The position numbers and the translations under genes are program-made. From Mytilus edulis (lineage: Eukaryota), in assembly GCF_963676685.1 (NCBI RefSeq), contig NC_092344.1:104594001-104658000 (forward strand): a stretch of DNA of 64,000 nt, read 5' to 3'. A model generated the notes under the pieces. It saw only the letters and a list, made by a program, of their open reading frames with translations. It ran no database searches and was not told where the DNA came from. Each line of letters begins with the position of its first letter. The stretch's first letter is position 1. This document shows positions 12,135 to 63,042 of the stretch, piece by piece.

Positions 12135-15100
12135 TGTTATTGAATAGATTTTTAATCTACATGCCATCTGAATACGTAATTATACTAACGTCCAGTACTC
12201 TTCAGCTGCTGATATCCTTTTATGTCCGGTAACTTCTGTAAACATGGTGTCATTCCATAATCCAAGGAACTGGTCCCCATTGTAACATGTTCCATTCAGA
12301 TACTTTGTTGTGGTACAGTCGATCAGAGGAAGTTTATCAGCACAAACTATAATAAAGAGGTCAAATTTACATGCACATGAAACACATTTAAAATTCTTGT
12401 TTAAATTTACTATACATTTTAATTGTTTTACATCGTATAATAAATCTAAGTTTCTATGAAAAATCGTTATCAAACATTCACGAAGATTGGCTTCTTGTGA
12501 TTTTTCTCATACCTTCTATCATATACTACAGAAAGGATAAGCAAAGATAATACATTTCGATTACAAAATAACCTTTTTGTTAAGGTCACGGAATGTAAAA
12601 AAAAATTTAATTCTAAAAGACTTGATTGCAACTAAAAAAATATAATTTTAAGAAATATGAAAGGAAGTATTGTAATAATGATTCAAGTATACTAGTATAT
12701 AGATTTTCATTTTCTAGAATAAGTATTTATACTTATATATTTTTCATTAAAATTATTAGATATATTGATATTTAAAATATCAAAACGTACTGAATATTCT
12801 AGTAATATGTAAAGGACATTTTGAATATGGTAAATAAGGGTTATAATTTAGTGTCGCCTTAGCATATGAGCCGCAGACGGAATACTTATGTGTTTTTTTC
12901 CCGATTTGCTGAGGAGAAATAGTGTCATTAGGTAAGAACTTACATTCAGTATTCCACTCTGGATTATTACAGTCAGCCCAGGGGAGATCACTCGTGAATG
13001 AAACAAACAAATAATAATACGACCAAGCTAAGATCATGTTGTAGTATAATGATGTAAAACCAGACACCAGTACCATGGCAATTCCAACACCTTTAAACAT
13101 AGGTGCGAACTTCCAGCATGTCATTGGTCCACTGCTACAAAACTGACCAAGAGACGCCTCCATAAAGAAAAGGGGAACACCGATTAATCCCATCATCAAG
13201 ACAAACGGAATAAGAAAGGCACCACCCCCGTTCCTGTAGCACAAGTAAGGAAAACGCCACACATTTCCAAGGCCGACAGCGTATCCAAGGAGTGAGAGAA
13301 GGAAATCAAATCGTCCTGACCAGTTTCCACGATCCTCGTTTTCATCTTTCCCGAATATTAGCTTTCTGCTGTCTGTTGTTTCCACTGTAACCCCAGTACC
13401 CTGTTGAAATATATCATTTATGTATTATATTATAATCGTCTAATAAGATGTGAAATCGTTCAGTTCAAAAAGTAATGAAAAAAGTACATACTAGAATATA
13501 GGAAAAGACATAACAAAAAATAAATTGCACGGGACTTGTTTTATACGAATGAAAAAAATAAGTGCTATTCATTTGTTATTTCGTCCATTGCGAACACGTC
13601 CATCTATATTTTTCTTAAACTTTTTATAAAATATTTGGTGTCATAAAATCAGGCTCTATTCTGATGTTCTGCTTTATTACACTCTAAAATCGCCCGTTGT
13701 TCTTTTAATTGATGCAGTAACGTCCAACACATTAGATGTGCTCATTTAATATAAAACAGCATGACAGTATTGTTCTATACACAGAAAATAATTTTTAGTC
13801 GTATTGCAAACTGCAAATGCATGATTGCATCAACGTAATCATCAAAAAGAGGCGCAATGATTTCATAAAACCATCAGAGGTACAAACTTACCGTGGAAGG
13901 TGTCCTGGAATATCCCTTTTTGTCATCGTAGATTCCAGGGTCCAGCGAGGTTTTTATTTCTTTGCCTTCTACAGAACTTTCCTCTGACTCATAATAGTCC
14001 CGTCTGGCCTAAGTAATTATAAAACTGAATTTAAAACATAACAAAACACATCAAGAGAAAAAAGAATAATTGAACATGTATAATATTTACTTGATATCAT
14101 TAAACCCGAGAGAAAGTGAAAAAAAACTTTCAGATTCATTTTATGCGAGTATCGATGTTTATTGGTTTGTCTCGTATGCTAAATGAACTGTCCGTATTGA
14201 CATTCATGGACATATTTCTGGAAGTTCAAACATATTGCATAAAGCAAGAACAAACGGACCAGAAACAAGTCAACCCTCCATATTGGTAAAAGTAACTTAC
14301 ATATTATTTGTACTTTTTGTATGGCCCTTACACGTTTATTTTACTCTTGGAAAGTGCTTTGAGGAATATCATCGCTAGTCGAGGGTTACGATCCATTCCA
14401 AGGAGACTTGCAATATACTTTATATAATATACACTCTATTCTTATAAGTTTTGAACTGCAGAACTCTTAAATCCAATTGCTCCATTATAACTAGTTTTGA
14501 ACCAGGAAGTTCTTAATCTATATTGAAATTATTGTCAAAACCTTATTTTCTAATGCATTCTTTAACAGATAGAATCTCTTGCAAACTCTAGAAAACGGTA
14601 TGTCAATTTATGACTGATTGGTTTTAATGGTTTATTATTCCATAACGCCTGTCAGCCTGAAACTGCTATATCACATAACAGTACAACTGACTGTAGAATA
14701 GAAATCTTAACATTGGACACTTTGTATATAACCATAGTTGTACATCTATGATATAACAAAGAAATACGTGTTTAATGTTCTAACAAATAATACTACGTTA
14801 TTAAAGAAAAATACACAATTCTTGTTTTAATAACTCATTAAGTCATGTTTTAGTTATTATGTGTTTAAAGGTTTTTCCGATGACAACCAGTGTATCCACT
14901 GATCCATGAAGATTGACATATTTAAGTCCATGTTTACAGTGCATGTAGTTTTCTTTAGTAAAGCATGTAATTGATATCAAAATAAATCAATGGAATATAC
15001 GAGTTATTATTATAGTTTTATTTTGGTTTCCAAATTCATAAATGCATTTTGAATTAACCCGAACATTTGGTTACTAATTTAACGATCATATGATAGCAAA

Positions 15101-24640: not shown

Positions 24641-24825
24641 GTGTATTATATATACAAAGTAAATATAGGTAGTAGCATTACCGTATATATATATTATAAT
24701 TATTAACACATATTTCAAAGGTTATCCACATGTTCATGCTTCAACTATGTTTTGGGTGTACTCGATTCGGTTACAGTACGTCACGCCACCACGTGTAGTG
24801 TTGTGTTATTAACAAGAATATTAAC

Positions 24826-27800
24826 CACAGTGTAGATACTATTCTGTACGCTATCCGGAAGTCGCGATATTCGAAGCGAGAACTTTTTGGATCACATTTT
24901 AAATTTGATGGGTATACTGAATTAAACGGTAAGTTGATCATCTGTACATTGCTTAATGATTAATTCAGCCGACATCGATATTATCAAATGGTTTAGAATT
25001 AAATTCCGCACATTCAATATTCGTATCTTTGCCTTAATCAAGAGATTTCTAAGTGCATCACTAAGAAAAATCAGTCGGCGAACCTAAAAACAATCTTTTA
25101 CCCTCTTAGTGTTCAAATTAACGTAAAATCCAGACTTAATTAACACAAAATCTTTTATGGGGTTACTTTATATAAGATACGGACTTGAACATTGCATTAT
25201 ATGGGGGCACCAATCAGGTATTTCTAACACCTCCTAAAAACCAATCAGGTATTTTCAACACCTCCTAAACCAATCATTAAAGTTTTCTGAAATTGCTCCA
25301 TTTGTACTCGATTAATGCATTATGGACCTTCTATTTCTGTAAACTTACCAAAATTATATCACATGAATTAACCCCCTACGCAAAGCTGTCTTTATCCATT
25401 TTTTGTTATTTTAAAAGCGACAAGCTTGATTTATGGTATCATCAATTGGTCAACGGAGGACGGTGTAAATAATCTTTAAAAATGTAATAGCTATAAACAC
25501 TGTAACGATACACTATTACAAAGTCTACAAGCGAATCATGTATTACATTTTAGGCATTTGATTTTAAATAAGACTGATGGAACAAAAATACAATTATTTT
25601 GCCATCTAAAAAATTCATCAGAAATATATTTGTATTGTCTGATGAAAGTAATTACACGTTATAGTTCCCTGGATAGTTCATAATATCACATATACACGTA
25701 CAATGTATATACCTTCAAATTGCTGTTGTTTTTTCTTCAAAATCACGACTGGTCATACAGTCAAAAAATCTGAAATCGCTTCTAGAATACAGTCAGTTCT
25801 AGACTGATCGAACAGTAATTTATTTTGGGATCCTCAAGGAAAACATATTTTTTTATGGGAAATACGAATATTCTACTGAAATACGAAAAGAATATTGAAA
25901 CAGTATATATTTAACTGTAAACTGATGCAAATATTTGCAATAAAAGATTATTTGCTTTGTACTACGAGAGCAAAATTGTCCATCGATTTCACTTTTTTTC
26001 TACCAAGTTGATGTGATGCACACGTATATTTCTCTGCATGATGTCTCTATTAATGACTTGCTGTCATTCATACAAAAGCCGTTCGGTATTCATCACATTC
26101 GCACGAAACTTTATCCATTACCCCTTTCAAAACTTCATTCTCTGTTCAATTTATGTTTGGAATCCACTGTTACAAACCCTCATTCAAACCAATACAAACT
26201 TCAAGCTATAATTTCGGATATTGCAAGTCACAGACTTTTCAAGCCAGTTCGCATTGGAAAAGACGAAAAAGAGAAAAGATCTTTTCTAAATCTTTCCTTT
26301 GCCAACAAAGGTCTCGATGGCGTCAACCTAGGCAATATCCTTCATCATAAATTAGTTCAATCGAAAATACCTCCTTATTTCAAAGACCAGTCTGTACCAA
26401 TAATTTCTTATACCTATACCAAACCTATTGCAACTTAAATTTTCAATTACAAACGCGTTTTGCAGAATCTCGATATTGACGACTTCAAGTCTAAACTTCC
26501 TGATTGCACTTGTGCTAGTTCCCAATTCATATATAATCCTGCTGGCCACGTTATTACCGGTGACCTTAACATTGTTGATAACACTTCTCTAAGAAATGTG
26601 TTATCGAAAGGTCCGAAATATCGTGAGCCTAAATCCATCAATTGGAAATACAACTTTAAAATTTTGATGGACTCAGTCGAGGATTATGCAAGGCAATGGG
26701 CTAAACGTGAAAAGGAAGACGTAGACACTCTATCCGAATGGATTAAGGCAGTGAGGTCGTTAATACAAATCAGAATCAAGAAACTGAATGGGTCCATCAA
26801 TGCCCATGCTACGTCAATCTTTAAAGACCCAAATGTTGCTAAACACTTATCCGACCTCCATGATAAATATGTTGTTGTTCCCGCAGACAAAGCCCCAAAT
26901 AACATCGTTTTTGTCTGTAAAAGTCACTACATTAATTGCTTGATAAACGAATTAGGTATAGACAATTCACTTGGAAACTCAACATATACCCTCACGACAC
27001 TTACCAAAGAGGAAATCCTGGATAATCATAGGTCTGTTCTTTGTTCCTTTGGTATTTCAACCAAAGATGAAGAACTGGATCTTCCATCACTGTATTTGAT
27101 ACCTAAACTACATAAGTGTCCTTACAAACAACGGTATATTGCTGGGTCTTCCAAGTGCTCCACGAAACCTCTTTCTAAATTATTAACATCTATTTTATCA
27201 GCAATCAAAGACGGGCTTCAAAGTTATTGTGAAACTGCCTATTCTAGAGGTGGCGTGAATCAGATGTGGATTCTTAAAAATTCCAAAGATCTTTTAGAGT
27301 ACATATAATCTAACTCTCTTTCATCTTGTAACAGTATTAAAACATTTGACTTTTCTACTCTGTACACAAGTATTCCACATTCCAAACTAAAAGACAAATT
27401 GAAAGAGTTGGTATTACTTTGCTTCATAAAAAAGAATGGCCAACGTAGATACAAGTATCTTGTCTTAGGGAGGGATAAATCATACTTTGTAAAGAATCAC
27501 TCTGATTCAAACAAAAAATTCTCTGAAACCGATATTATCAAGATGCTTGATTTCTTGATTGACAACATATTTGTAACGTTCGGAGGACGTGTTTTTCAAC
27601 AAACTGTCGGCATCCCAAATGGGAACAAACTGTGCCCCTCTACTTGCCGACTTGTTTCTTTATTATTATGAGGCTGACTTCATGCAGGAACTTCTTAGGG
27701 AGAAAGATAAGAAGTTAGCTATATCCTTTAACTCTACTTTCCGCTATATAGATGACGTTCTTTCACTAAACAATTCAAAATTTGGTGACTATGTGGAACG

Positions 27801-28725
27801 CATCTATCCCATCGAATTGGAGATGAAGGATACTACAGATACAGTTAAGTCGGCTTCATATCTTGACTTACATCTAGAAATTGACAATGAGGGTCGGTTG
27901 AAAACAAAACTTTACGACAAAAGAGATGATTTCAGCTTTCCAATTGTGAACTTTCCATTTCTAAGTAGCAACATTCCAGCAGCACCTGCATACGGGGTAT
28001 ATATCTCCCAATTGATACGATATTCCCGTGCTTGCATTTCCTATCATGATTTTCTTGATAGAGGGTTACTGCTCACAAGGAAGCTATTAAACCAAGAGTT
28101 CCAAATGGTGAAGTTGAAATCATCCCTTCGTAAATTTTACGGACGCCATCACGAGTTGGTTGACCGTTATGGAATAACCGTTTCACAAATGATATCGGAT
28201 ATGTTCCTTACGTCGTAACTACAATCCCCTTCCCTTTCATGAATGTGACCTACCGAATTAGACTATTTACCGAATTTGTAATCACATAAGCAACACGACG
28301 GGTGCCACATGTGGAGCAGGATCTGCTTACCCTTCCGGAGCACCTGAGATCACCCCTGGTTTTTGGTGGGGTGCGTGTTGTTTACTCTTTAGTTTTCTAT
28401 GTTGTGTCATGTGTACTATTGTTTTTCTGTTTGTCTTTTTCATTTTTAGCCATGGCGTTATCAGTTTGTTTTAGATTTATGAGTTTGACTGTCCCTTTGG
28501 TATCTTTCGTCCCTCTTTTATACTCTAATGCATGTTTTTGTTACAGTTACTCATATTTATGATGCTATATATACCTTGAATATGTTCAAAGCACTTTGTA
28601 GATATAGGAGTAAACAAATGATGAGAAAAGTTACCGTAGGCAAAAACGTCCTGTTAGCCGGTTGGAAATCATCGCTTCGAAAATCGCGACTTCCGGATAG
28701 CGTACAGAATAGTATCTACACTGTG
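24826..28725. mobile_element. Non-autonomous DNA transposon with CACAGTG termini, 54-bp TIRs and a 5-bp TSD (Transib/RAG-like)
   Basis: 24826-24879 matches the reverse complement of 28672-28725 at 53/54. TTAAC lies directly outside both ends. Confidence 0.85.
26035..28520 (+). mobile_element. 5'-truncated Penelope-like retroelement (RT, no C-terminal endonuclease; Naiad-like), disabled
   Basis: ORF pieces 26013-26438, 26460-27308, 27399-27671 and 27589-28218 join into an RT with VPADKA, IPKLHK, TFDFSTLYT, GIP-MGTNCAPLLADL and RYIDD. Two stops (~26436, ~27306) and a +1 frameshift (~27617) disable it. A ~300-bp 3' tail follows. Confidence 0.9.
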
Positions 28726-29103
28726 TTAACATTTTATTCCAAATTGTTTAATGTGATTTCATTAGAGGAGATTGGCGTTGTTTGACCACAAAAATGCCCA
28801 TCAGGCTGTTAAATTAAATGTGTTATGTATCGCCAAAAATTCGCAAGGCTAATTGATTTAATTTTATTGAATTTTGATTCCAAGAAATTTTCTCTATGTA
28901 AATGAATGATTGATATTCAAATACAGATATTTGAGGATACATTAGTTATGACATTAGTTAATAACTTTTCACCTTCTGGTGATTTGAAAAGAAACCAAAC
29001 AATGATAACATCATTTATAAATAGTTTAAAATGATTTTGCTATAACAAGTTCAAAACTCATGATGTACGTCCATGAACACAGAATAAGTTGTGTGCAGTG
29101 ACT

Positions 29104-31619: not shown

Positions 31620-34221
31620 TTAACACAATCGGCTAGAATTTGTATCCGATTCCAAATGTACAAATGTTTTCCTTTCAATTAGTATTTCCGTACACGATCG
31701 CCTAATATACCTTCAAGTCAAAATACAGAGCTAACAACTGTTAAAGTGCTGCCAATTTCAACATTACATAAACATGTACAGCATTCATTGCAAACAATGC
31801 TAAATGGTTTGAATTGTTTTACATTGTCTTATGGGGGCCTTTTATAGCTGACTATGCGGTATGGGCTTTGCTCATTGTTGAAGGCCGTACGGTGACCTAT
31901 AGTCGTTAATGTCTGTGTCATGTTGGTCTTTTGTGGATAGTTGTCTCATTGGCAATCATATCACATCTTCTTTTTTATAAATGGGGCAAGATGATAACTT
32001 ATAATGACTTACAGTGCCATCAATGAAGACAGTAATACTAGTCCACCCATTACCAAAAACACCATGCCTTTAAATATGGGTCTTGTTTGTTTATATACGT
32101 CAGAAAATGCAGCTACACCAATCACTCTTACCGCTGAATCTAATACCGCCATATTGGAAAATAGTACACCTGTAAGATGAACATTAACTATTTACTTGCG
32201 AATGCTTTTTTATTCTGTCCACATTTAAGATTTTATCCTTCTGTTTAGAAATGGAAAATAAATCCGTCTTGTCAAATGTGTCTTTCTTAAACCTTTCCGA
32301 TCGTTTTACCCAGATATATGAAGAAATGTTGCCCAGCCCTTTAATAGAGAATAATTGTATAAAAATGTAGGTGTCGTTATCTGGAAATTAGAAAACTTCA
32401 TTCATAGTTCATAACTAATGCTCGATTAATGGTTAGCTTAAACAATTTTGTAATGGGTTCCATATATTCCTAAATATTATTTGAAGCCACGACATAACTA
32501 AATTAACTACTGCTAACCGAAAATGAGTTTTAAATTATTATACTGTTCATCCTCTCTTATTGATCATTTGATAATACTTAAGATAGAGAAGTAAAAGTCT
32601 ATAATGTTCATCCGTTTACCTTGTTTATCAGGACTGACTTTTCTTGATAGTATTGCGTTTATCATTGTTTCTCCACTGTCACCTATTACTCCAATTCCAA
32701 TAACTAAGAAAACACAAAATGTATGTATGAGAACAATACACATTGCGTAAGTTCTAACGCAAAATGAAATATTCAAAAATTTATTTGTTAGATTTGGCAT
32801 GAAAGCTGACTAACTCACATTTGATATAATAATTAGTTTTTTTACACATTAGTACACAAGTAGTGCAAAGTTATGTCCTGCACAAAATATTGGAAATCGC
32901 TAAAACGACAGTGCTTGTTAATTTTTTTTCAGTGATATGATTTTTAAACATCCAAACTGTTTGAGCTCTGTGTATTTTGTCTACAAGATCGCATTCTATG
33001 AGTTTATTTTTTTAACTAACTTGTGAATAAAGACATTAATACACTAAGAATACGCAATGGTATTTATTTAACCTGTATTTACCTGTATATAGCACCCAGC
33101 TATGCATTGCAAGACCATATGCAATATAACTGACTATAGATGACAAATTGCAGACTTGTAGTATTATTTCATCAGGTGTACAACGCTGTAATATAGCTAT
33201 GATCAATGGCGCAAAGATGCACTCAGCAATTGATAAACCTGCTCCATACCACCCTATACGTTCTGAACTCCAACAAAACGGCCAACCTAACTTATAAAGA
33301 TTACTAATTGGTGAGTATGCAGTTCCTGCTAGTTTTAATAGGATAAAAACAAACAGCCACGAGAAAATGTGTTTCCTATTTCCTATGTCTGCGTCGGTTA
33401 TCATCGACCAGATTTGAGATTTCAGTGAAACAGAACAAACCTTAACGTTATGTTTGGCTGGTTTAGGCCTTTGTTCTTTCAGAAATACAACTATAGATAA
33501 ATCAAGAATCAAAAGAATACCAGCACACATGAAATACTGTGGTAAATATCCAAAATAATGAATGGAATAACCAGTTATAATCTGTGCTATAAAGAAACCA
33601 ATGCCATTTGCTGAAGTATAAAGAATCATCACGAATGATCTTTGTTTATCCTTTGAAGTAGTATTGGCCATTATGCCTGACGAAGCAAGGTCATATGTAT
33701 AGTGTGTCCCCGAGAGACCATTGAATACAGACGATATTCCTCATATCCAGGACCAGATACACATCCAAACTGTTGTAAACTACATATGTTCTGACACTCA
33801 TGCCTATGAGCAACATTGATACATTCCATACAAGTAGGAATTTTCTACCAATTCTATCAGTCATTGGTCCTAAAACGATCATTATCACGACGGAAATTCC
33901 CGAACTTATCATTTCGGAATACTGGTTTATCGTTGTAGCCTCACTTTGGGCTTTAGATTCCAGGGAATTTGATGATTTGTTTCCCACCTGACAACTTTCA
34001 ATTTCCATGCTCCTATTTTCTGTTGATACTGTACTTCCATTGGTTAAAGTGTCATTCAATAAATGTTGTTTTACAAAGTGATAAATATACTGTCCATCAT
34101 TCACTGCCGACATTTCAGATTGAAATCCAGAGAGCATTTTAAAAATGAAAAGTTGAACCCATATTTGTGTTAATATTTTTCCTCTTGCATTTTGATGAAT
34201 TAACCCCTCCTTTTCATCCAT
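31620..34221 (-). pseudogene. SLC46-like MFS transporter, paralog A (frameshifted)
   Basis: Exons 34221-33083, 32703-32620, 32169-32013 and probably 31710-31620 (last exon uncertain). Motifs GPMTDRIGRK and PFCWSSERIGWY. The frame breaks at ~33720-33757, with ~10 nt extra relative to the paralogs. Confidence 0.8.
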
Positions 34222-35786
34222 TCCTAACTAATGATAATTGTTTACTTCGTGTAGTTCATTATCCTTTCCATTTATTTATATTAAACCATGACAATTACAA
34301 ATAATTTTATCTAATAAAGTCTTATGAGAGATGGTGTTGTTTACAATTAACAATCACGTGTATATTTAGTACACAAAAGAGTATGTAAATAATATTAATG
34401 TAAAATAAATATATTTCGTCAAATATACATTATTGAAATATTCCAGGATAAATTTGGCGTTTCCGAAGTGTTTTTTTTTTCTCTGGACTTTCACGAACGG
34501 TCAAAGCCATACTTAAAAGCTAAATCCGCAGTAGTACTGGAATTCATGATGAGCTTTATGATCTACAGACAGCGATAGTGTCGGTTTCTATTTTACATTC
34601 GGCTCTCATTTTGTTCTGTACGTTACACCACTGTTTCAAGTTAGACATGTTTAACACCGTCTCATTGTGTATGTGTATATACCAAGTCATATAAATAAAA
34701 TCATCATAAATACCCGTTTTGAAGTTTGTACGCCAGACGTGCGTTTGTCTACAAACGACTCATCAATAATGTCGGCGACACTAATTGGCGTATAGACCAA
34801 CGTGCACCTGACGTACAGGGATAATTGACTAAGTTCGTATATGTTAGGTGCACGAAAGAGGAATTCTAAGCAATGGTTAGACGCGTGTTGCATAAGTTTG
34901 AAATACCAAGGTGTACGCTTGGAGAACGCTATAACTATCTCCAGGAAAGTTTTATTCATCTAGCTACAGCGTTTATAAAGTGAGCGGATAGTTGTTCGTA
35001 CACGCACATATTACATACGCTAGAAGCGCGTTGATAAACTATACAGATAAGTTTGAGACACGCTCAGGGCACGTTGTATACGCCTCAAGATCGTTCGACT
35101 TTTACTTGGACCACCTACTCATATTGTTTGCAGATGTAAATCTTAATTACAATGCTTACGCAAACTTTAATACAAAAACAAGCAAGCAAATCTAACAATT
35201 GACTTCTTGCTAGCATAAGGATAACAGCTGTAAAGTCTAGATAATATGTTATCAATAATGTATCCAACATTATGATGTCGAACAAAATATAAGCACTTTA
35301 CCAGTTATTTTTCAACTAGACAGTGGCACTGATGGTTAGATAGGGTATACATATATGGACACTCAATAACCACTCCAATGACTCTGTTAGGGTTCAGTAG
35401 ATATGGCTTGTTGCAAAGCAAGTTTCTATCCCTATCCAACATATACTCATCATTGAATTTCAATTCATTTATCCAGGTCTTACTGCTTTTGTAGATCCTA
35501 CCTGTTATTTTTATGGTTACTTTCTTTTCTTGTACGAAAAAGCATGACATATTTGCCATAAGTTAATCAACTGACATTCTATAGGTCAATTTTGCTGGAC
35601 CTTTTTTTAGCCTATGTATCTTATACCCCAAAACAAAGAAGAACTAAAATACAATCTGGTTAAAAATGCATTTTCCCTTAAAAGTGAGATTTTTTTTAAT
35701 CATATAATTTGAAAAAAATTGTTAGTCTATAAAATATCAATCTTTTTATCCTCTTTAGAAATATTGTTAAGAAATATTTAAAATTG

Positions 35787-38700
35787 TCAAGTTGATATAC
35801 TTGATTTTTGAATGTCTGGTCTTTCGATGACTATCACGGTTTGGTCTTTTGATGGAGTTTTTGCGCACTTCACAAATCTGAAAAAGAAACCAAAATTATC
35901 ATCTGATTTCTACAACACTAGATTATGATTATTACTAATTACTCAATATCTACATGTCACACATAAATTCAAAATTAAGATTTAGAATTTTTTTTAAATG
36001 CAGACTTCCATGCCTCGTACATTTTACTTTGAAACAATTCATTGCTCTTTCGTGTGAATCAATATATCTTAGAAACTTATGAAACAAAACGTTGATAAAA
36101 CGTTCTTTCTTCGTTACAGGTTTATTCGGCATTATTAACAACATCTTAGAAAATGCTTTTGGACAAAAACTTCATCATATATATTGACAAAAGTAAGACG
36201 GCAATCAAATCATACACGAAGGGCGGGCACCACAATGGCTAAATCACTAAACAGAATATAAACGATTGAGAAATGTTTTCTCACAGTTGTTGAACTCCTG
36301 TGCGCTAGCAGTTCCTTATCTAGTAGTTCCTTATCTATATAGCTGCTGACACTCCTGTGTTTTGTGTAGTGCAGGAATATAGTTTTATTTTGTGATTAAC
36401 GTTTCAAGTACATTTAATTATATATGATATAATATTTAAACTACAAAGTAAAACCAGGTTCTTTCATAATTTTATGATTCAAAAATATGACTTGAAATGA
36501 ATTTTTAAACAACTTACATTATCATCATAATAAGAGCTAATAATGGAAATCCAGCCATTACAAAGAAGACGAATCCTTTGTAGAATGTCACTGTTTGGTG
36601 GTAGATGTTATTGAATAAGGTAGCTGCACAAATTTGACACACAGCTTCTATCAGATATACATTAGAAAATAGTGCTCCTGGAATTAAAAATACTACGAAC
36701 TCTTAAAACTATTACATTTCAAGAAAAATTGAGAATTTACTAACATGCATATCTTTATTAGATTATGAAATAAAAAGTACACCACTGACATAATACATAC
36801 ACGCATGACTCTATTTTTTATTGATGTTCTTTTATGTACCAACTATGTCTAAAGAAAGATCTTCTCAATCAATGATTCATCACAAGCTTTAATTGTATAT
36901 CTTGACGTCGCACTCTTAAATCTTATCGCAGCACAGTTTATATGTTGGTGCACCACTTACCTTGTTTTTATTTGGATGCACCGCTGACCATGTATATCTG
37001 TATGTACAACTCCCATGGTTAATCTTGAAATACTACTCACAGTATTCATATTGGAGTACTTATTTTCTTGTGTCTCTTTCAGTACATTAAATTGTGTGTA
37101 TCTTGACATACATATAAGTTTGATGATTAATCTAAGTGTACCACTCAACTTGTTTATTGTGTTTAACCGGTTGTCTTGTTGATCTTGTTGTATCACTAGT
37201 TTAATATATCTTGGTAGTTAATAGTTGTTATCCATTTGTTTGATGTGTTTTATCTTTGGATTTTGCCATTTAATTAGGGACTTTCCGTTTTGAATTTACC
37301 TCGGAGTTCAGTATTTTTGTGATTTTACTTTTTGATGTAAAACTGAATTTTTTTATTTAAGTGCATCAGTTTTTTCTGTTGTTTCACTTACCTTGCTTAT
37401 TGGGATGTACAACTCTGGATAGCATGGCTTTAATTACGGGTATTGGTAGAATTTGTAAAATAGCAGCTGCTGCAGCTATAAAATATATCACAGGTGTTTA
37501 AACTAATTGAAAAAATGTCAAATAAGTATAGTATTATGTCGATGAATATTATAGACTGCTAATTATGAGAGCGGTGAAACCATTGACAAAAACGCAAATA
37601 AATCATTTTTTCGATTGTTACTTCATTTATTGTGAAATGCAGTTCTTTATTATACCAAACGGACAAATGTTTGTAAATAGTTATCAAAGGTACCAGGATT
37701 ATAATTTAGTACGCTAGGCGCGCGTTTCGTCTACATAAGACTCAGGTGAGACCCTCCGATCAAAAAAGTTATAAAGCCAAAGAAGTACAAGGTTGAAGAG
37801 CATTGAATTGTCTGATTTATGTTATTCTCAATTTGAGTTTCTCAGTAATTCTTTAACACAAAAACGTCACCTATCGTCACAGCCTTGAGCTACTCTAGCA
37901 AAATCAAATCATGTAATTTTAACCCCCCCCCCCCCCCCCCACACACACTAAAATAATCAGCATGTGTATGAATGGTTGGTTCAATAACACACGATTTGAA
38001 TCACGATTAAACGGGGGAATAATTACGCAAGTCATCTTAAACGATAATGTTTTAGACTCATAATAATGTCTTAATATAAATAGATTCCGTTTCGAAAACA
38101 AATCCTTCTCTTAAATGTTTGCTTTTTAATTGTTTGATTGGTCTGTTTTCAAGCTGCATATGTTTCATACAGCAAATTAATTAATTAAATTTAGTTAATA
38201 TTTTACCTCCAAACAACATCCAACTATTTTTTGATAATCCATATAGTATAAAACTTGCAATAGAGGACAAAAAACCAAATGATACTATCAATTCGTCTGT
38301 AATATTTTTGAAGCATATCTGTAAACCTTTAAGAATAATTAATCCGCCTACAAACACTACAATATCATTGCAACCACTAAACCAACCGATGAATTCTGCA
38401 GACCAACAAAATGGTGAACTCAAGGTATATATCATTCTTATAGAGCTGCTTGCAGACATAGGCATCAAATAAATAAAAAATATTAACAGATAAATCAAAA
38501 CGTAATTTACCCTGCCGGTTATATTTTCACTTCTGGTACACCAGGAAAATATTTCTCCGAGAGAGATATTGACATTTGTGTTTTTGCTTCTCCACTATTC
38601 TTCCAAGACTCATTTAAAGTGATAAGCACTAAAATTGCTAAAATGAAAACAATTCCGCCTGAAATAGCGAACGGATATATAAACCCGGCAAATTCTATCA

Positions 38701-39334
38701 AATATCCCGAACTAATATAAGAGAAGAAAATTCCAAATCCTAATAATGCATCATATGAAGCCATTACAATCGTTCTTTCTTTCCCTTTTGATGTTCCGTC
38801 TGCTAACAATGACAAACTTGCAATGTGAAAAGTATTATATGTTCCAGAAAGGCCTTCAGCTGCAAACCCGATTAAAAAATAATACAAATTAAGATCAAAG
38901 TAAATAGCTACCGTCTTCATTGCAAATGAAATGGTCAAAACTAATAAATTCCATAGCAAAATCTTTTTCCGTCCTATTTTATCTACCATAGGTCCAAAGA
39001 ACATAATAAAGGGAATTGCAATTCCGAATTTTACAAGTGTAATATACCATGACCAGTCGGACGCTATGGCCTGTATTTCATCGTCAGAAGTACCATTTGC
39101 ATTACAACTCTGAGTTACAAATTTCGAACGATTCTGATTGGATTCCAATGTCGAATTGTTTGCAAAGTCATGATTTTTAACGTAAGCATAAACAAATTGT
39201 GTCGTTGCTGGACTGGAAATAGACAAACCAAGGGTATAAATAACAACATAAATCATAACTTTGACACGTGTGCTTATCCATGTTGATTTCTGCCGAAGAC
39301 GTTGCTCATTCAATAGCGGTTTGTGTTCCTCCAT
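35787..39334 (-). pseudogene. SLC46-like MFS transporter, paralog B (+2 frameshift)
   Basis: Exons 39334-38207, 37475-37392, 36677-36518, 35877-35787. Motifs GPMVDKIGRK and PFCWSAEFIGWF. There is an extra dinucleotide in the (GA)4 run at 38559-38566. Confidence 0.82.
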
Positions 39335-45600: not shown

Positions 45601-46774
45601 TATTCACTAAGCCTTATATAGCATATAACTTACATTCATATATCATATGATCAGTCGTTGACAATCCGAATATAATGTAACTTGCCACAGAGGATAGTAA
45701 ACCAAATATTACAACCAGTTCGTCTTTAATATTTTTAAAACATGTCTGCAAAATTTTTAGAATAGCTGTTCCACCTACAAACACTACAATAGAACTAACA
45801 GCACTAAACCACCCGATTTTTTCCGAAGACCAACAAAATGGTGAACTCAAAGTAAATATAGTTGTTATAGATCCCGAGGATGGCATATTATAAATAAAGA
45901 ATATTAATAAATAAATTAAAATGTAACTAACACCACGGCTTATGTTTTCTACTTTTGTACACAAGGAAAATATTTGTCCTAAAAACACCGACACTTGTAT
46001 TCGACTTGTCGTTTCACGATGTACTAAAGAATCGTCTAAAGTAATTGCTACTAAAATTGTAAAGAAGAAAAATATTCCACCTGAAATAGCAAAAGGATAA
46101 ATAAAACCTGTGAACTCTATTAAATATCCTGTCCCTATAAAAGAAATGAAGGCTCCCAATCCTATTACCGCATCATATATCACCATGACAATAGTTCTGT
46201 CGTTTCCTTTTGATGTTGTATCTGCAAGCAGTGCACAGCTTGCTATACTGAAGGTTGAGAATGTTCCAGAAAGTCCTTCAATTGCGAATCCGACTAAAAA
46301 GTAATATAAGTTCAGTTTGAAATAAATTGTGAGTGTTTTAACTGCAAATGAAAGAGTCATTAATGATAAATTCCACAGTAAAACTGGTTTACGACCAATT
46401 CTATCTACCATAGGTCCAATGAAAATAATAAATGGAATAGCGATTCCGTACTCGGCTAGAGTAATATACCATGACCAGTCGGCCGATATCGCTTGTATCT
46501 TATCGTCGGAAGTACCATTTACATCACAAGTCTTAGATACATTTTTTGACTCACTTTTATTTGATTTCGTTGTCGAGTTATTTGTAGCGTCATGTTGTTT
46601 TACATATGCATAAATATATTGTGTTTGTGCTGAACCCGCAATTAGTAAAGCAATTGTATTGATCATCGCATATGTCATTACTTTCACACGTGTGCCTATC
46701 CATTTTGGCCTCTGTTGTTGCGGGATCTGTTGCACTTTCAGTAGAGGTTCGTTCTCATTTCCGCGGAAATCCAT
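42689..46774 (-). CDS. SLC46-like MFS transporter, paralog C (intact, ~490 aa)
   Basis: Exons 46774-45634, 44598-44515, 43932-43776, 42779-42689, phase-consistent. Motifs ENEPLL, GPMVDRIGRK and PFCWSSEKIGWF. Confidence 0.9.
44822..45271. mobile_element. 450-bp fold-back (whole-length palindromic) MITE
   Basis: The arms are reverse-complementary from TATAGAATCATATTCAAAACAG to a centre near 45046, with TA at both ends. Confidence 0.9.
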
Positions 46775-48062
46775 TGAGAAAAGCTTTCTTTTGTATATTA
46801 ATATAAAACTCTCACTTTTAATAGGTAGATTATACACATATGGCCGGTCAATGAATGTTTACCTGTATCGAATATATTTTAAAATCCTATATTAAATAAT
46901 TGACAGAACTGGTCAATGCATAGGTCACATTTTCGAACATATTTGGAATTAAATGTCCTACATTATGAACTTGTTATATGATCCGTACTAAAAATCAATA
47001 TGGATGTTACACCTGGAATGTTAAAAGATAGTTGTGAACGGAGCCATGAATAAGTGTGTAGACTTATAATTACATGTACATATACTTATTATATACTACA
47101 TGTAGAACACTGGCTTTATATTTGTAGTAGATTCCTAACAATAACTCAGACATTCGTATACCATATACTTGTAACACTAACTAGGTTATCCATTCAACAC
47201 CCTCACAAAATGTCCCTCGAGGGGAAAAGATGACCGCTGACATGATACTAATAATGAAAATGAACAGGAAATTTACAATGAAAATGAACGGGAAGTTTTT
47301 GTGAGAATTGTACAAATAGACGTCCTTATTAATTAAGCTTTATAAATACATGATTACAAGCGATATCAGTACGGCAGATATATTAGGATATGTGTTACCT
47401 TTTGCTATTAAAAGCATTGGATTGGTGATCTTGGTGAACAGATTTTTGTCTGCGTTTCTGATTGCCATTGAAATATGCTAGATTTTGCAATTATGTATCT
47501 GTGTTACCTATTGCATTTTGCAATAGGGTGTGTTATCATCATATTTCAATTTATATGATATTCTATGTGAACTCACGTTAACTTATAAAGAAGTTTTTAT
47601 GCGGTATCTGTTCTTGATTCCTTGATTTGTTTAAGTTCTTCGTATGGTTCCTGTGTGATACTTGCACACCTCTGCTTTTCCATATACACATGACCAAACA
47701 GCACAAACCACTGCCTAGGCTGGCATGTAAAAACGATGTTTTTAAAATTTGCTGTTACAAAATTTTTGTAATTACCAAAATTTAAGGAATGCATCTCCCT
47801 CATGTAAAGCTTTGATTCCTTGCCCGGCTTTGGCTATAATTTTGTCCTTTTTGGTTAATAGCTCTTCGTCCTTTTAATAAGCATTTGAAGTTTCAAATAT
47901 TTTGACCTCGAGCATCACTGAATGACATGGATAGTTGAAATGCGCATCTGTCGCAGAAACATTGGTAACTTTTATGTTATTAAAACTTGATTCTTAAATG
48001 AATTTATACAAAAGTTTTACTGGTGTTGAAAAAATCGTACCTTTCATGTCATTACCACTTAA

Positions 48063-51560: not shown

Positions 51561-54500
51561 CTATATCTGAGTAATTAGTACACCCTTTACATCGTTTTCA
51601 CTAGATGGAACCTGAATATCAACCTTTTCAATCACTAATTCCTTCTGTATTGTTGTTGAATCGAAACAAGAAACAAATCTACAATAAAACAGACATGAAC
51701 TACATTAATCATTGTTTTTCAACGTCCAAAAATAAATATTTAATATTTTCAGAACATAAAAAAGTTCAACAATAGAATAATTAAAGCATAGATGTCTTTT
51801 CCTGTTTAAATTGTTTTACACTAGTTATTATGGTGCCATTTATAGCTTGCTGTACGGTGTGAGCCAACTTGAAGGTTCAGTGTTGAAAGCCGTACTTTGA
51901 CCTATAATTGTTCTACCGACAAAATCTCAAAGATTCATTTTTTTTTCTGAAAATTATAACATGCATTTATATATAATAACTTTATTAACGTATAATTTAA
52001 TTTTAGATGTAACGCGTCTTCTGATTGGCTGACTTTATTTTGTTATGAGCCCATAGACATAATTTAGTCATGTGACCGTGACGTCATCAACGTTTTTTTT
52101 ATGGTTTTCTACGGTTAAAATGGAATTAAAAATTAAATTATAAGAAATGACTGTAATATTTTTTCTGTCTATTCGAAATAACATAAAAAATGTGGTGCAC
52201 ACTGTTAAATAACCCGTTACGCGCGTTATTCAGTGTGCACCAAATTTTTAATGTTATTTCTTCAATGACAGAAAAAAATATTACAGTCATTCCTTAATTA
52301 ATCTTCATACTTTAAATTTTCAAAATATAAAGTTACAGCGCCATTCAACTACAAAAATCTTATTTCAACACACACTTCTATCGACATAACAATGATGTGA
52401 TAGTTAAAATAAATCATTTTATAATTACCCCATTAATATGAGACCGCTAACTGGAAAGCCGGCCATTATAAAAAATATGAATCCCCTGTACACGGTCAAA
52501 GTTTGTCTATATATATTATTAAATGTAGTTGATCCTGATAATACACTCAATACTTCAAACAAATACACATTGGAAAACATCACCCCTTTAATAAAAAAAA
52601 ACAGCAATTAAATACATAAATTATTTTTTTTATATATGTATATTCAGTGAGTCAAATACACTCCATGACCCACAATATTTCATATATTCATTTGACATCT
52701 AATTTAATTTTCGCAAGAACTGATAGAGTCGAGTGGTCTAATGCAGTGGACACAATATATACAGGCCACTATGTCTGAGATGCATGGGTTTGAACCCCGA
52801 TGAGGGAACAAGGGAAAAAAATCATTTGAGTTTGTCATTGCTCACTGCACTTTTGGTATATTTCTATTTTCAAAATTTTATGTTAACTTTTATTTAAAGT
52901 TTTGATATACATGCCTTCTGCCATTGTGGTGTATGGTCAGTCTAAGAAAGCCGAAAAACAAATGAGTTCGAATATTCTATTATGCTTCAGTTTCCGATGA
53001 CAGAAAAATATGATTTGTAATATGAAGTATGAAATACTAGGTTTAATATTATAATTCAAGAAAACAATAGTTAATTAGTGCTTTGCTGATGATTGTTGAC
53101 AAGAAGAAATTAAAAAAAAAAACACAATCTAATAAGTGCAAGTTCTTTGCTCAATGACTAAACTGAGATTTTCATAGGAAATAGTTGAGCCAACTTAAAA
53201 AGTATACTAGAAATCTATGAAATGTAACGCTATAATTGTGTTTTATTCCTTAGAATTTCTTTTTTAAACACAATACGGGACGGACAAATCAACGTTCTAT
53301 ACAACCAGGTTTAATCCACCATTTTCTACATAAGAAAATGCATGTACCAAGTCAGGAATATGACAGTTGTTATCCAAAAGACCAAAGAGAGAGATGCAGA
53401 AATTGAAGATGTCCGTGAATTTACATATCTTGGAAGTGTAACCAGTATATCAGGTGGGACAGATGAAGACATCCAATCAAGAAAAAGAAAAGCTCAACAA
53501 GCCTTTAGTATCCTAAAACCAGTCTGGAAGAGCAAAGCGCTCAGAACGAACACCAAAATCAGGATCTTCAACTCAAATGTAAAGTCTATTCTTTTTTATG
53601 GGTCAGAAACTTGGAGACTGACAAATGCATCTACAAAAACGTTACAAGTTTTCATGAACAGATGCCTAAGAAACATCATTGGAATCAAGTGGCCAAACAC
53701 AATCAGCAACAAAGAACTGTGGAAAAGGACAAGACAAGAACCAATAGAAAGAACGATAACAACACGAAGATGGAAATGGATTGGACACACTCTACGTAAA
53801 AGCAACACAAATGTAACTAGGCAGGCGCTAGATTGGAATCCCCATGGCCATCGTAAAAGAGGGCGACCAAAATTAAGTCAAGTAAGTATCCATTCGTTTG
53901 ATGTGTATCCATTCGTTTGATGTGTATCCATTCGTTTGATGTGTATCCATTCGTTTGATGTGTATTCATTCGTTTGGAGTGTATCCATTCGTTTGATGTG
54001 TATCCATTCGTTTGATGTGTTTCAGCTTTGATTTTGCCATTTGATTATATACTTTCCGTTTTGAATTTTCCTTGAAGTTCAGTATTTTTGTGATTTTTAA
54101 AAACTTTTTTTGAGAATAACATACCTTATTTGGTTATTTAGAGACCCATTTGATATGATAGATAACAAAAAAATAGTCTACTAGACTTAACCTAGACTTA
54201 CCCTGTTTGGTTGGATTAACCTTTCGTGAGAGTGTCGCTTTTAGTAATGGAATGCACAAAACTCGAAATATTGCAGCAAACCCAGCTGTAATGGTGATAA
54301 CATGAAATATTAATTAAGGTGTAAACATTGCAACTCATAAAAATATAAACTGAATTAGACACCTGTTTTAGGATTCTACAGTGCAATTTTTTTAAAAGAT
54401 GAGATGGTGCATTTTTTTTTTTTTTTTTTTTTTGTCGTTGGGATAGATTCTGTTAATTGTACTTCCAAAAAAAACAATTAACTTTTACATGACAGCAATT

Positions 54501-55714
54501 ATTGATAGGTAAAGCATACTTAGGAATGGTAATGCATGAACTTTTCACAGAAATAGTTTAGACTTACCTCCATATACCATCCAGTCGTTGTTAGAAAATC
54601 CCATTAGTATTAGATAGGCAATTGAGGACAACATGGCAAACACTATAATGATTTCATCTTTTAACCAAACACAACACGAGTGCATAATCTTCAACATTGT
54701 GGTTCCCCCAATATATTTCACAAAATCTACTCCTGCATTGTACCAACCGATATGTTCTGATGTCCAGCAAAATGGTTCGCCTAATAGGAACAACGTTAGT
54801 ATAGAAGAAATAGAAGTATATGGAAATATAACCAGAAGTAGTATAAATAGATTAGCGATAAAATATCCTAACTTATTACTTACGTGTTGTCTCTTAAAAC
54901 ATAATGTAAAATTTTTAATTGGTAATTTGAAAACAGATGTTTTTGATTTGTCTTTCGGTGGTTTCCATGTCTCTTCCAAAGTACAAAAAATCAGAATAGG
55001 AAGAATTAAAAGCAATCCACTTGAAACCAGGTACGGATATGTAAATCCAAGCAATTGAATTAGGTATCCAGTTCCTATATTAGAACAGATTGCTCCCAAT
55101 CCTAGGAGAGCATCGTATATCATCATCATTAAAGATCTATCATTACCCAGCGTAGTTGTGTCTGCAATGATTGCGTGATTAATAAGATTGAACGCAAGAG
55201 GGGTACCAGCAAGACCCTCTATCGCACTAGCAGCTACGTAATACTGCAAAGGAAATCTTCCATATACAACTATAGTCTTCAAAACAAATGATATAAAAAC
55301 CATCACTGTATTATATAATAAAAGTGGCTTTCGGCCAATTCTGTCAGTCAATGGTCCGATATAGAATAAAACCGGAAATGCAACTCCATATTCCGCTAAT
55401 GATATGTACCATGTCCAAGAAGATGCTTGTTCTCGAGACTCGTCTGCAGATGATGAACTTTTGTTAAAGCAATTGTTTTGATGATTGCTAGAAATGTTGT
55501 TATGAATATCAACAGAAGTGTTGTTAGATTCGAGTGCATTTTCTAGATACGAATATATATACTGAGGTTGAGTTAATCCAGCGAATTCTATAGCAAAATA
55601 ATTAATCATGACAAATAACGATAATTTTGCTTTGGTGTATTCCGATTTATGCGAATTTTTCTTTTGCTGCAAAGAGCTATTATCCCTCTTTATAAGTGGA
55701 ACTCTCTCGTCCAT
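51561..55714 (-). CDS. SLC46-like MFS transporter, paralog D (intact, ~501 aa)
   Basis: Exons 55714-54568, 54285-54202, 52585-52429, 51678-51561. Motifs [16 protein letters not shown] and [12 protein letters not shown]. Ends ITQI*. Confidence 0.9.
51991..52296. mobile_element. Palindrome-ended non-autonomous element (same architecture as 23915-24640)
   Basis: A 14-bp inverted pair at 51991-52004/52129-52142 abuts a 156-bp hairpin at 52141-52296. Confidence 0.65.
52716..52808 (+). mobile_element. tRNA-derived SINE head (degenerate)
   Basis: A-box-like TAGAGTCGAGTGG and B-box-like GGTTTGAACCC, but no intact cloverleaf. Confidence 0.45.
53377..53886 (+). mobile_element. RTE-clade LINE 3' fragment inserted in another repeat
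   Basis: Reads FTYLGS...KA...F..L...W...TKIRIF...LFYGSETW...RWKWIGH...RKRGRPK. It has an AAGTCAAGTAAG tail and TATCCA at both junctions. Confidence 0.9.
53886..54018. repeat. 19-bp tandem repeat x7 (GTATCCATTCGTTTGATGT)
   Basis: Directly visible; the fifth copy is diverged. Confidence 0.95.
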
Positions 55715-56678
55715 TTCGTTTGATCATCTGTTACATGTATCAAATATGTATAATCTATTTATGATAAAACCATGATTAAAGTTTGTTTGTATAATGCAAT
55801 ATAAAATTGACCAATTATGAATCAATGTAATTCAACAATCACCGTACGGTATACAAAAGTAGTTTATCCACATAAAAAACTCTTTGTTTTACATACAATG
55901 TATATATATATGAGTCCAAATCTATTTGGGAAAGGAAAGGCCTTCTGTCATAATAAGCATTTTTCTAAAAAAAAAACCGCTGTAAAGTATATGGTGCATA
56001 GACTAATACATATAAGAAGATGTGGTATGAGTTTAAAGAGACAACTCTCCATCCAAGTCACAATTTGTAAAAGTTTACCGTTATAGGTCAAAGTACTTTC
56101 TTCAACACGGAGTGTATGTTTTAGATTACCATAATTTCTGAATTTCGAATACACGCTTAAATCGTTCTGTTGTTAAAATATAAGCCATCTTTTCATTCTT
56201 AAACATAACACGACATTTTGAACTATTCGGATTATCATTTTTTGTTTTAAAGAAACTATATACATCGTGTTGTGAGTATAACATTTTGCCTCTGGATTGT
56301 TGATATTTTGATATACGGTGTGTACAACAATATACAGCATATCTTTGTGGGAATTATCTGTTTCATACATGTATATCATAATAGGTTAAGATAAATGATA
56401 CACTAAACTGTCCCATATAAATATATAAATAGAGCTCACATGACTATTATATAACATAAAAATGTGTGTAGTGTACCCGTGTGGCACCTTTAAAGTCCAC
56501 AATTCCTCTAAAGTCCATAACACCGCTAAAGTCCACAACAAAAATCTGTAAAGTTGATAAGGTACATTTAAATGTTGTGTATAAATTTTCATATTATACA
56601 CATGATACAATAGTTGTAAATAAATAAATCCCACCTAGTTTTTGTATCGACAGAGGGTCTTACTGCCCAATGTGTGTG

Positions 56679-59836: not shown

Positions 59837-62800
59837 TTAGACGTTTGATTCTCTACCGTCCACGTCTTTGATGGCTGGTTTTTCGATACCGTCCACGTCT
59901 TGGATGGCTGGTTTCTCAATTATGAGTTCATTGGTTTTCTTGGTCGTTTTTAAGCATACCGTATACCTGAAATGAAAGGTATATCAGTTAAGAACACAGT
60001 AAAAGTACATGTATTACTTAAAATTAGTAAACTATTCAACTATTCACAACAATTTTTCTTGGAAAATAAAATTATTTTGTTTACGACCTTTGTTTTCGTT
60101 TCGTGGTGTGATGCATGTGTGTGTGTGTGTTTTTTTTTTCTTTCTTCTGTTGTTTTGGCCATATAACTATAAAAAAAAAAATGGTTTCTAGATACGGTAG
60201 TCTACATTCTAATTATATCATTTACGATGATAATCTACATCGAAACGATTCATATTTGTGCATTTTTTGCATAGTTGCTAAAGATTGAGATCATATTGCA
60301 TGTGAAGACAGACTTAAAAAACACACCAAAAACAAGCAAACAGACAAAGAAGAGAGAGTGTATGATTTTTATTACTTACATCATTAAAATGAAGGCAGCA
60401 AAAACAAAGCCCGCCATAGTGAAGAATACAAATCCATTATATAATGACAAAGTATGGTGATAGATGTTGTTAAACAGTGTGGCTCCTCCTATTCTTAGTA
60501 ATGTTTCCATCACGTGAATGGAGGAATACAGTACTCCTGTAACAAAAAAAATAAACAAAAAAAAATCAAACAGCATATATTTACACAAATGATATCGGAT
60601 ATGTTCCTTACGTCGTAACTACAATCCCTTTCCCTTTCATGAATGTGACCTACCGAATTAGACTATTTACCGGATTTGTAATCACATAAGCAACACGACG
60701 GGTGCCACATGTGGAGCAGGATCTGCTTACCCTTCCGGAGCACCTGAGATCACCCCTAGTTTTTGGTGGGGTTCGTGTTGTTTATTCTTTAGTTTTCTAT
60801 GTTGTGTCATTTGTACTATTGTTTTTCTGTTTGTCTTTTTCATTTTTAGCCATGGCGTTGTCAGTTTATTTTAGATTTATGAGTTTGACTGTCCCTTTGG
60901 TATCTTTCGTCCCTCTTTTACGTAAACTGATGAACATATTCAGTGGTGAGCGGCTTAAACCCATTGATGACATTGCGCTGTTTTTTGCTCTTTTGTCGGG
61001 TTGTTGTCTCTTTGACACATTTCCCGTTTCCATTCGCAATTTAAATTTATTGGATATGCGTGTGTGGTTGATATAGTGACCGTCTCTTAGGAACTAATCT
61101 CTGTAAACTGTTTCGATGATTATTATTTAAGTAAAAGTTAAATACATGTATATATATTATATATTACCTTTACTTGTATATAATTTGATGGCACGTCATA
61201 CTGTTTGTTTGCTTTATATTATCGTGCTTTTTTTCATCGAAAAATGGATTTTTAAAAGTTTTTTCTTCTTCAAATCCCTTATTTGACTGTTATGTATAAC
61301 TGTTATAAAATAGTTTTCCATCGCAATAAATTTACTAGTGAAAGCTGTTTATTAAAAATGATGCTGTATAAAACCTATAGTAATCACGATAACCAACCTT
61401 GCTTGTCTTTGTGTACCATCTCGGACAAGAGTGCTCTAATTAAAGACACTGGTAGAACTCGAATAACTCCTGTTCCTATTGCTGAAATGTGAAAATATGT
61501 CAATTAAGCTTGATTATTTAAAATTGCTGAAAAATGTAAACTCACTTCATGGTAATTAGTGAACTACAACTTTTCAGTTAACGTTTATACAAACTGCAGA
61601 AACTTCAAAAATACCTGTACCAAGTCAGGAATATGACAGTTGTTAGCCATTCGTTTGGTGTGTTTGAGCTTTTAATTTTGCAATCGATTATGGGCTTTCC
61701 GTCTTGAATTTTCCTTAGCGTTCGGTAATTTTGTGATTTTTCTTTTTGAAATGAAATAAAAATTGTAAAAAAATAAAATACAACATATAGAACATAAATT
61801 ACCTCCGTATAATATCCATTGATTTTTCGATAGCCCATACACGATATACGTTGACATACAGGATAGAATTCCAAAGACTGCGATTACTCGGTCGGTCAAC
61901 CCGACGCAACAAGAATGAAATGTCTTTAGTATGAGTGTTCCACATATAAACATGACAAAGTCAGATCCTGCTCCATACCACCCAATGTGTTCAGAGGTCC
62001 AACAAAACGGGGTTCCCAACTGAAATATAGTTCTTATTGCACTAACCACACAATGTGGGAAATAAAAAAGGCAATATGCGACGAAATATATGATAAATTT
62101 GGTTATATTAACTAGTTTACTCATATTTTCAGGCTTAAAGCAGAATGAAAATAATTCAAACGGAATCTTAAGCCATTTTATTTTAGTTTTCTTGTCTGGT
62201 GGTATCCAAGAATCTGCAAGTGTTAATTGTACTAAAACACACAGGAACAGAAACATGCCTGAGGTAATTATATATGGATCTGTAAAACCTATTAGTTGTA
62301 TTAAGTACCCGGTACCTATTTGAAAGCTAACAGAGCCAACGGCAGATAAAGCATCGTATACTGTCATCATTAAAGATCTATCTTTTCCCTCTGAGGTTAC
62401 ATCTGCAAGAATAGCGAAGTTTGTTATTTGATATGTATAAAACGATCCTGCAAGCCCTAATATTCCACATGCAATGGTATAATAATATAAATTCATGTTT
62501 CTATACACGATTACTGTTTTAAGAATAAATGAAACGAGTGTGATAACTAAATTCCACATCAAAACAGGTTTCCGTCCAATTTTATCAGCGATTGGTCCTG
62601 CGAAAACTACGATTGGAAATGAAACACCCGCTTCAGCAATTTGCATGTACCATGACCAGTCTGATGCTAATTGTTGTAGTTGGTCGTCTGATGATGTTGA
62701 ATTGGCATCACACGTCTTAAAGTTTTCAGTAGAATTATTCTGTGTTTCATCACGGGTGTCATTTAAAGAATAATTATTTTTTATGTATGAATAAGTAAAT

Positions 62801-63042
62801 TGTGGTTCGATTGTTGTGGTCACAGTAATCGCACAGTTGTAAATTAATGCATACATCATCACTTTCATTCTTGTACTCATACATTGTGTGTATGTTTTCT
62901 CCTTAACTAATAGAACTTCCTTTTCATATGTTTTATCCTTGGCCAATAGAACTTCCTTTTCATATGTTTTATCCTTGGCCAATAGAACTTCCTTTTCATA
63001 TGTGTTATCCTTGGCCAATAGACCTTCTTTTTCATCGTCCAT
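59837..63042 (-). CDS. SLC46-like MFS transporter, paralog E (intact, ~536 aa)
   Basis: Exons 63042-61803, 61481-61398, 60536-60380, 59966-59837. Motifs GPIADKIGRK and [12 protein letters not shown]. Ends ESNV*. Confidence 0.9.
60583..60920 (+). mobile_element. Young Penelope-like 3' end in intron 2 of paralog E
   Basis: Near-identical to 28185-28520. Confidence 0.92.
62891..63034 (-). repeat. 36-bp coding tandem repeat x4 (EKEVLLAKDKTY)
   Basis: Units start at 62891, 62927, 62963 and 62999. Confidence 0.95.

Follow-up and report, generated by a model that had tools for sequence, protein, structure and literature searches.

The window analysed here is a stretch of 64,000 nucleotides from the mussel Mytilus edulis (contig NC_092344.1, positions 104,594,001 to 104,658,000 of the forward strand), and its subject is a transposon at 24821..28730, whose terminal inverted repeats (TIRs) start with CACAGTG, the sequence of the V(D)J heptamer, and which is flanked by a target site duplication (TSD) of 5 bp. 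The best explanation overall, to which we assign a probability of roughly 0.88 as a whole, is that this transposon is an internally deleted, gene-less, non-autonomous copy of a family of 12.6–13.5 kb TIR transposons, into which a retroelement inserted later, and that its mobilization in trans was likely due to a large protein encoded by the family itself. For this protein, structural modelling predicts a DDE transposase of the P-element type whose RNase H fold houses a lambda-exonuclease (YqaJ) domain. An earlier note, made from the window alone, had proposed a Transib/RAG1-like partner elsewhere in the genome. An autonomous partner was indeed found there, in two full copies, but its predicted fold resembles that of P transposase (Z 30.3) rather than those of Transib and RAG1 (Z at most 12.0), so that only the first half of the proposal could be retained.

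The copies and their full-length parent

The genome (1.37 Gb) was searched for exact matches to the first 25 bases of the TIR. There are 462 such matches (234 + 228), corresponding to approximately 230 copies, whereas the reversed 25-mer used as a control has none, and the TIR family is therefore not a product of chance. TSDs were tabulated for 40 copies, namely the window copy and 39 of the 41 other TIR pairs among the first 100 matches listed. They are perfect over 5 bp in 34 copies, 4 bp long in four, and carry one mismatch in five positions in the remaining two, which bears out the earlier note's view of a fairly recently mobile, non-autonomous cut-and-paste family with a 5-bp TSD. The GC content is 19% for the TSDs (n = 34), 28% for the 35-bp target site, and 32.5% for the window. 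Many of the copies are 2.2–2.9 kb long, and a transposase frame is present in none of the 40. The terminal 200 bp show a median pairwise identity of 92.5%, with at least 99% identity in 3.6% of 703 pairs, a spread that indicates several waves of movement, some of them recent.

Long copies were sought among further TIR matches listed, a part of the 462, with four pairs of 6–8 kb lying outside the sample. Two of the six TIR pairs of 12–14 kb that were examined are autonomous elements. Both are located on contig C10, with lengths of 13,491 and 12,624 bp; they are 98.6% alike, have unrelated flanks, and possess the same 54-bp TIR as the rest of the family, an open reading frame (ORF) of 1511 codons and a convergent ORF of 270 codons for a C2H2 zinc-finger protein. 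The two copies differ at 17 bases of the large ORF, and the TSD of one of them is AACTT. The annotated transposase product is somewhat larger (1581 aa) owing to two additional 3′ exons. The convergent ORF matches zf-C2H2 with E 3e-16 and shows no match to RAG2, the comparison covering this one ORF of the gene. Where the earlier note had proposed a search for RAG1/RAG2-like or Transib ORFs in long TIR-bounded copies, the parent encodes a protein with a predicted P-like fold and a C2H2 protein.

The 1511-codon ORF belongs to the element itself and is not a nested insert, because its 5′ part is overlapped by 16 of 49 shorter copies (by four of them solely through an inverted repeat) and because one of these copies (L040) runs continuously from the TIR over positions 1–2070 of the autonomous copy at 97.5% identity. 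Apart from the two full copies, a 1.2-kb probe from the ORF detects a single fragment in the genome, at 90%.

Several other long copies were considered as parents and rejected. Those among the first 40 are mosaics of nested inserts without a transposase. The remaining 12–14 kb pairs comprise two with long terminal repeat (LTR)-type inserts (B9 and C5_19.7), one mis-pair (B7), and one in which the ORF is reduced to its first codons (C4_52.2). An LTR-type retroelement of about 10 kb with long gag/pol-like frames was seen in each of the non-autonomous family copies L138+L139 (G000:C9:21162126-21175240) and L184+L185 (G000:C5:19714165-19727848). Some copies furthermore harbor a unit of about 160 bp once or twice (e.g., L035, at about 1700–2600 of the oriented element), which elsewhere is amplified into dispersed tandem arrays on C2, C4, C10, and C11; these arrays are possibly a transposon-derived satellite.

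The transposase, its proposed action and its relatives

Pfam recognizes a YqaJ domain at residues 556–710 of the transposase (E 2e-7). Among 26 members of the lineage YqaJ was detected in 24 and the TNP-like RNase H domain (PF21787) in 13 at E ≤ 0.5 (best 1.4e-5), and RAG1 (PF12940) in none. THAP was likewise found in none of the 26 at E ≤ 0.5, some members being N-terminally incomplete; instead of THAP, the N-termini carry a C2H2-like pattern. The predicted model of residues 330–1511 (predicted local distance difference test score, pLDDT, 82) superimposes on the Drosophila P transposase (6p5a) with a Z score of 30.3 and a root-mean-square deviation (rmsd) of 2.9 over 325 residues, the alignment extending from residue 200 to residue 569. 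With other transposases the same model gives much lower values (HzTransib, Z 12.0; BbRAGL, 10.0; RAG1, 8.7–10.7; Hermes, approximately 9). Lambda-type exonucleases align to model residues 210–427 with Z of about 15. In the model, the first two putative catalytic aspartates are about 550 residues apart, and it is between them that the exonuclease domain sits, carried by a helical bundle.

D359, E614, D656, E678, K680, D914, and D1300 are invariant in all 30 aligned sequences; H1303 is conserved in 29 of the 30, and E1470 in all 24 sequences that align there. Catalytic roles were assigned from conservation and position: D359, D914, and E1470 would form the DDE triad, D1300 and H1303 a DxxH signature, and E614, D656, E678, and K680 the putative site of the exonuclease. 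A search of the PDB with the single transposase sequence gave no matches, and an Atlas search provided a lead only (0.85, YqaJ cluster).

Taken together, the predicted fold, the conserved residues and the TSDs lead us to infer cut-and-paste transposition by a P-type core with a 5-bp staggered cut of the target. The DDE core would cleave at the CAC termini and link the 3′-OH ends to the two target strands at sites 5 bp from each other. For the exonuclease within it, the most probable task would be to shorten, in the 5′-to-3′ direction, the 5′ strand that is not transferred, either where the transposon ends or at the donor break, and so to generate 3′ overhangs. This trimming, to which we give somewhat less than even odds, is suggested by two analogies. 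The lambda exonuclease is an enzyme that degrades 5′ strands. P elements, for their part, leave 3′ extensions of 17 nt, besides using GTP and generating an 8-bp TSD (PMC7776569). The zinc-finger protein would likely bind the element ends or regulate the element.

A somewhat less likely alternative is that the exonuclease, although catalytically active, is dispensable for cutting and joining, and that it serves the repair of the donor site or attacks DNA ends that compete. Lambda-type exonucleases accompany unrelated transposases too, for example in KolobokE (PMC9587614) and ISL2EU (PMC4482050), which suggests a more general accessory benefit. Here, however, the exonuclease is inserted into the catalytic fold itself and has been kept in all 30 aligned sequences, which argues that it is tied to the transpososome.

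It is unlikely, to our mind, that the enzyme of the same parent element represents a superfamily of its own beside P rather than within P. In favor of a separate superfamily, the TSD is 5 bp and not 8 bp long, THAP is not seen in the 26 members, the first two aspartates are some 550 residues apart, a second gene is present, similarity to P in sequence is barely detectable, and 447 protein clusters match the transposase at E ≤ 1e-30 (clustered at 50% identity). On the other hand, the alignment with P transposase scores far above those with all other transposases, and the DxxH signature and the PF21787 matches agree with P.

The C-terminal 240 aa of the transposase have 67 matches in the mussel genome, many of them within frames of more than 1,100 codons. 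Eighteen related loci were sampled and both ends could be located in 15. A perfect 5-bp TSD is present in 10 of these 15 loci, the 10 coming from nine families. Nine of the 10 have TIRs starting with CAC (CACTGTG, CACGGGT, CACGGTG, CACAGTG, CACGGTC, or CACTGGT) and one starts with CAAGGGG. Zinc fingers encoded downstream on the opposite strand were found in 18 of 18. Sequences with snail, clam, or annelid labels are among the homologues. Metagenome, prokaryote and viral collections yielded one non-autonomous fragment, two short contigs from symbiont metagenome-assembled genomes (MAGs) without ends, and two weak matches to the exonuclease only. The TIRs and TSDs of the lineage are thus established in this genome only. 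The two MAG contigs (L186 and L187), 3–4 kb in size and from two sulfur-oxidising symbionts, carry full-length-like transposase relatives; they are most likely host DNA and less probably the result of horizontal transfer.

It should be noted that a number of observations weigh against the explanation preferred here. For the other autonomous copy, which lies in an AAT run, there are matches at 3 and 6 but no clean 5-bp duplication, and 5 of the 15 related loci are likewise without a clean 5-mer. The structural model rests on 30 sequences, and its residue pairing was not visible. At the level of sequence, kinship with P finds weak support: when profiles were compared with a local P-like ORF, the probability was 0.5% and the aligned region covered only the C-terminal glutamate motif, and the Foldseek E value is just 6e-4. 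Two raw-read RNA runs are almost without reads over the transposase ORF, and two contig sets cover it at a low depth that may reflect DNA. A joint corresponding to an empty site was not seen among the joints listed, beyond which there are 1352 further ones. Finally, the arms of the window copy are just 87–91% identical to the intact full copies, and an extinct sister subfamily may therefore have moved it.

RAG1-fold elements, anatomy of the window copy and its surroundings

One family copy (L078) holds a fragment of a RAG-like ORF, which led to intact ORFs of 808–865 aa elsewhere in the genome. The predicted fold of one of these (a member at L126) matches RAG1 with Z 26.7, BbRAGL with 25.5, Transib with 15.2, and P with 12.5, and the pipeline is thus capable of recognizing a RAG1-like fold. 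The ORFs are the single ORFs of intact, near-identical elements of about 8 kb (L121:311-8556, L122:410-8629, L123:347-9822, L124:910-8801, and L125:920-8810; also L120 and L126). The elements L121–L125, from two families, end in CAT...ATG, and in none of the five copies is there a TSD of at least 2 bp. They possibly represent an undescribed TSD-less group of RAG1-like elements. The fragment in L078 was considered as the partner and rejected: it ends in the CAT terminus of the RAG1-fold elements and is therefore a nested insert from another family and not a remnant of the parent. A genome search with Pfam RAG1 (PF12940) returned no candidates, which is no evidence that RAG1 is absent, because the search missed real RAG1-fold ORFs; this Pfam model barely detects them, one of four giving E 0.008. 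At L134:2303-4880 (plus strand), a few kb away from the RAG1-like element of L120, there is a P-like remnant in two frames (PF21787, E 1e-13).

The reading in which a RAG1-fold enzyme moves the window element as a non-autonomous Transib/RAG-like transposon, the P-like ORF being cargo or a nested insert, has thus become highly improbable and is largely refuted: although CACAGTG ends with 5-bp TSDs are published hallmarks of Transib and RAG-like (RAGL) elements (PMC1131882, PMC7204232) and intact RAG1-fold ORFs exist in this genome, the latter belong to elements with other ends and without such TSDs, a clear tblastn match to them occurs in L078 alone among 49 copies, none of the TIR matches listed led to a copy that combines CACAGTGTAGATAC ends with a RAG1-fold ORF, in nine other families a P-like ORF lies in elements whose own TIRs start with CA and whose TSDs are 5 bp long, and the AT-rich TSDs contrast with the preference of Transib for GC-rich sites (PMC1131882). 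Neither end of the window copy has a nonamer: with spacers of 11–13 and 22–24, no more than 4 of 9 positions match. The caveats of the earlier note, which had already pointed to the lack of a nonamer, the symmetric ends and the AT-rich TSD, hence pointed in the right direction. Rather than descent from RAG, the heptamer match is likely to reflect convergence, or else a deep-rooted preference for CAC ends common to both.

The window copy begins with the left TSD TTAAC (24821..24825, plus strand), repeated directly as the right TSD at 28726..28730 (plus strand). In the autonomous element, the left TIR (24826..24879, plus strand) has its counterpart at the end on the zinc-finger side, and the right TIR (28672..28725, minus strand) at the opposite end, upstream of the transposase gene. 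Both are 54 nt long, start with CACAGTG on their respective strands, and are complementary at 53 of 54 positions (98%), as the earlier note had read them. The left terminal arm (24826..25144, minus strand) matches positions 13491-13172 of the autonomous copy and the right terminal arm (28516..28725, minus strand) positions 210-1, each at 91% identity. Between them lies an internal non-coding arm without DNA from the transposase ORF (25147..26031, minus strand), of which 25454-26031 is 87% identical to positions 780-208, upstream of that ORF. Directly after the left arm, the window copy additionally lacks about 880 bp that are found in typical copies of 2.2–2.9 kb.

The nested broken retroelement occupies 26032..28515 (2,484 bp, plus strand). 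Its edges were set by comparison with other copies and are blurred by 3–4 bp due to a T microhomology. Removing it leaves about 1,416 bp without an ORF of at least 100 aa, in agreement with the earlier note; an ORF from 25944 merely overlaps the edge. The insert contains reverse transcriptase-like frames at 26439-27308, 27309-27671, and 27577-28218, interrupted by stops and a frameshift and without a match in Pfam. From its motifs, the lack of a downstream nuclease frame and the features of Naiad elements given in PMC8557442, it is likely a 5′-truncated Penelope-like element of the Naiad type. Contig depth over the insert is very high and climbs toward 28550, and a joint skipping 26028-28516 is present in three of four runs.

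Around the insertion, five frames for MFS transporters (Pfam MFS_1) are arranged in tandem, all on the minus strand (33036-34227, 38519-39334, 45614-46858, 54545-55723, and 61672-63048). The window also contains an exon of a sodium:neurotransmitter symporter (12780-13424, minus strand) and a frame with a DUF6451 match (53315-53920, plus strand; E 2e-16), which is probably a retroelement remnant.

Comparison with known systems

CAC ends together with a 5-bp TSD serve to label gene-less elements as Transib or RAG-like, and Transib was called the sole eukaryotic superfamily with 5-bp TSDs by Kapitonov and Jurka in 2005 (PMC1131882). In the mussel genome, this signature accompanies a P-fold enzyme in ten families, whereas the RAG1-fold elements are without it. 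Evidence from ends only, as used in work on the origin of V(D)J recombination, is thereby weakened, and it is likely that such ends alone cannot identify relatives of RAG. The two copies with open frames also offer a testable transposase with two nucleases, in which the effect of an accessory nuclease on end processing and TSD length can be studied; a link between nuclease and TSD length has been proposed for Academ lineages (PMC10045372).

No description of the lineage was found in the literature searched, which lay outside Repbase and most subscription journals; the supplementary consensus libraries of PMC10294476 could hold it. We tentatively propose, at a little below an even chance, a widespread, undescribed invertebrate lineage, possibly a superfamily of its own, in which a P-type transposase would carry a working 5′-to-3′ exonuclease within its catalytic fold that processes the ends, in which heptamer-like ends, a 5-bp TSD and a convergent two-gene layout would have been arrived at independently, and to which some gene-less "Transib/RAG relics" would belong.

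CACTA/Chapaev (CMC) transposons, the other superfamily that the earlier note had named, have TSDs of 2–4 bp (PMC4482050), whereas 34 of the 40 mussel copies have 5 bp. The exonuclease-bearing transposons described in PMC9587614 and PMC4482050 differ from the mussel family in layout and TSD. In KolobokE, a nuclease resembling lambda exonuclease is fused to a DDE transposase of the C/DxxH type, but it lies downstream of the transposase and the TSD is TTAA. ISL2EU is likewise a DNA transposon with a YqaJ exonuclease, but encodes it in a separate ORF beside a PHIS-type transposase and has an AT TSD and GG ends.

With Transib, RAGL and ProtoRAG (PMC1131882, PMC7204232) the family shares TIRs starting with CAC and TSDs of mostly 5 and sometimes 4 bp, and with RAGL also two convergent genes, the second of which encodes, however, a C2H2 zinc-finger protein and not RAG2. 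It differs in the predicted fold of the enzyme (Z 8.7–12 versus 30 for P), in the lack of a nonamer, in its AT-rich targets, and in a TIR that departs from the consensus of protostome RAGL after base 3. The family is thus neither Transib nor RAGL. Its closest likeness is to P and THAP9 (PMC7776569), with which it has in common the predicted split RNase H fold with a helical insertion domain, DxxH, the DDE triad, CA-start TIRs, and the anatomy of a cut-and-paste transposon. It is set apart from P by the length of its TSD (5 instead of 8 bp), CAC-type ends, a C2H2-like N-terminal finger without a THAP match, the size of its protein (1581 aa), the exonuclease between the first two aspartates, and the convergent zinc-finger gene. 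Since the predicted fold is P-like but neither the 8-bp TSD nor THAP was found, we place the mussel family beside the P superfamily, as a new and allied variant, and do not treat it as a plain member.

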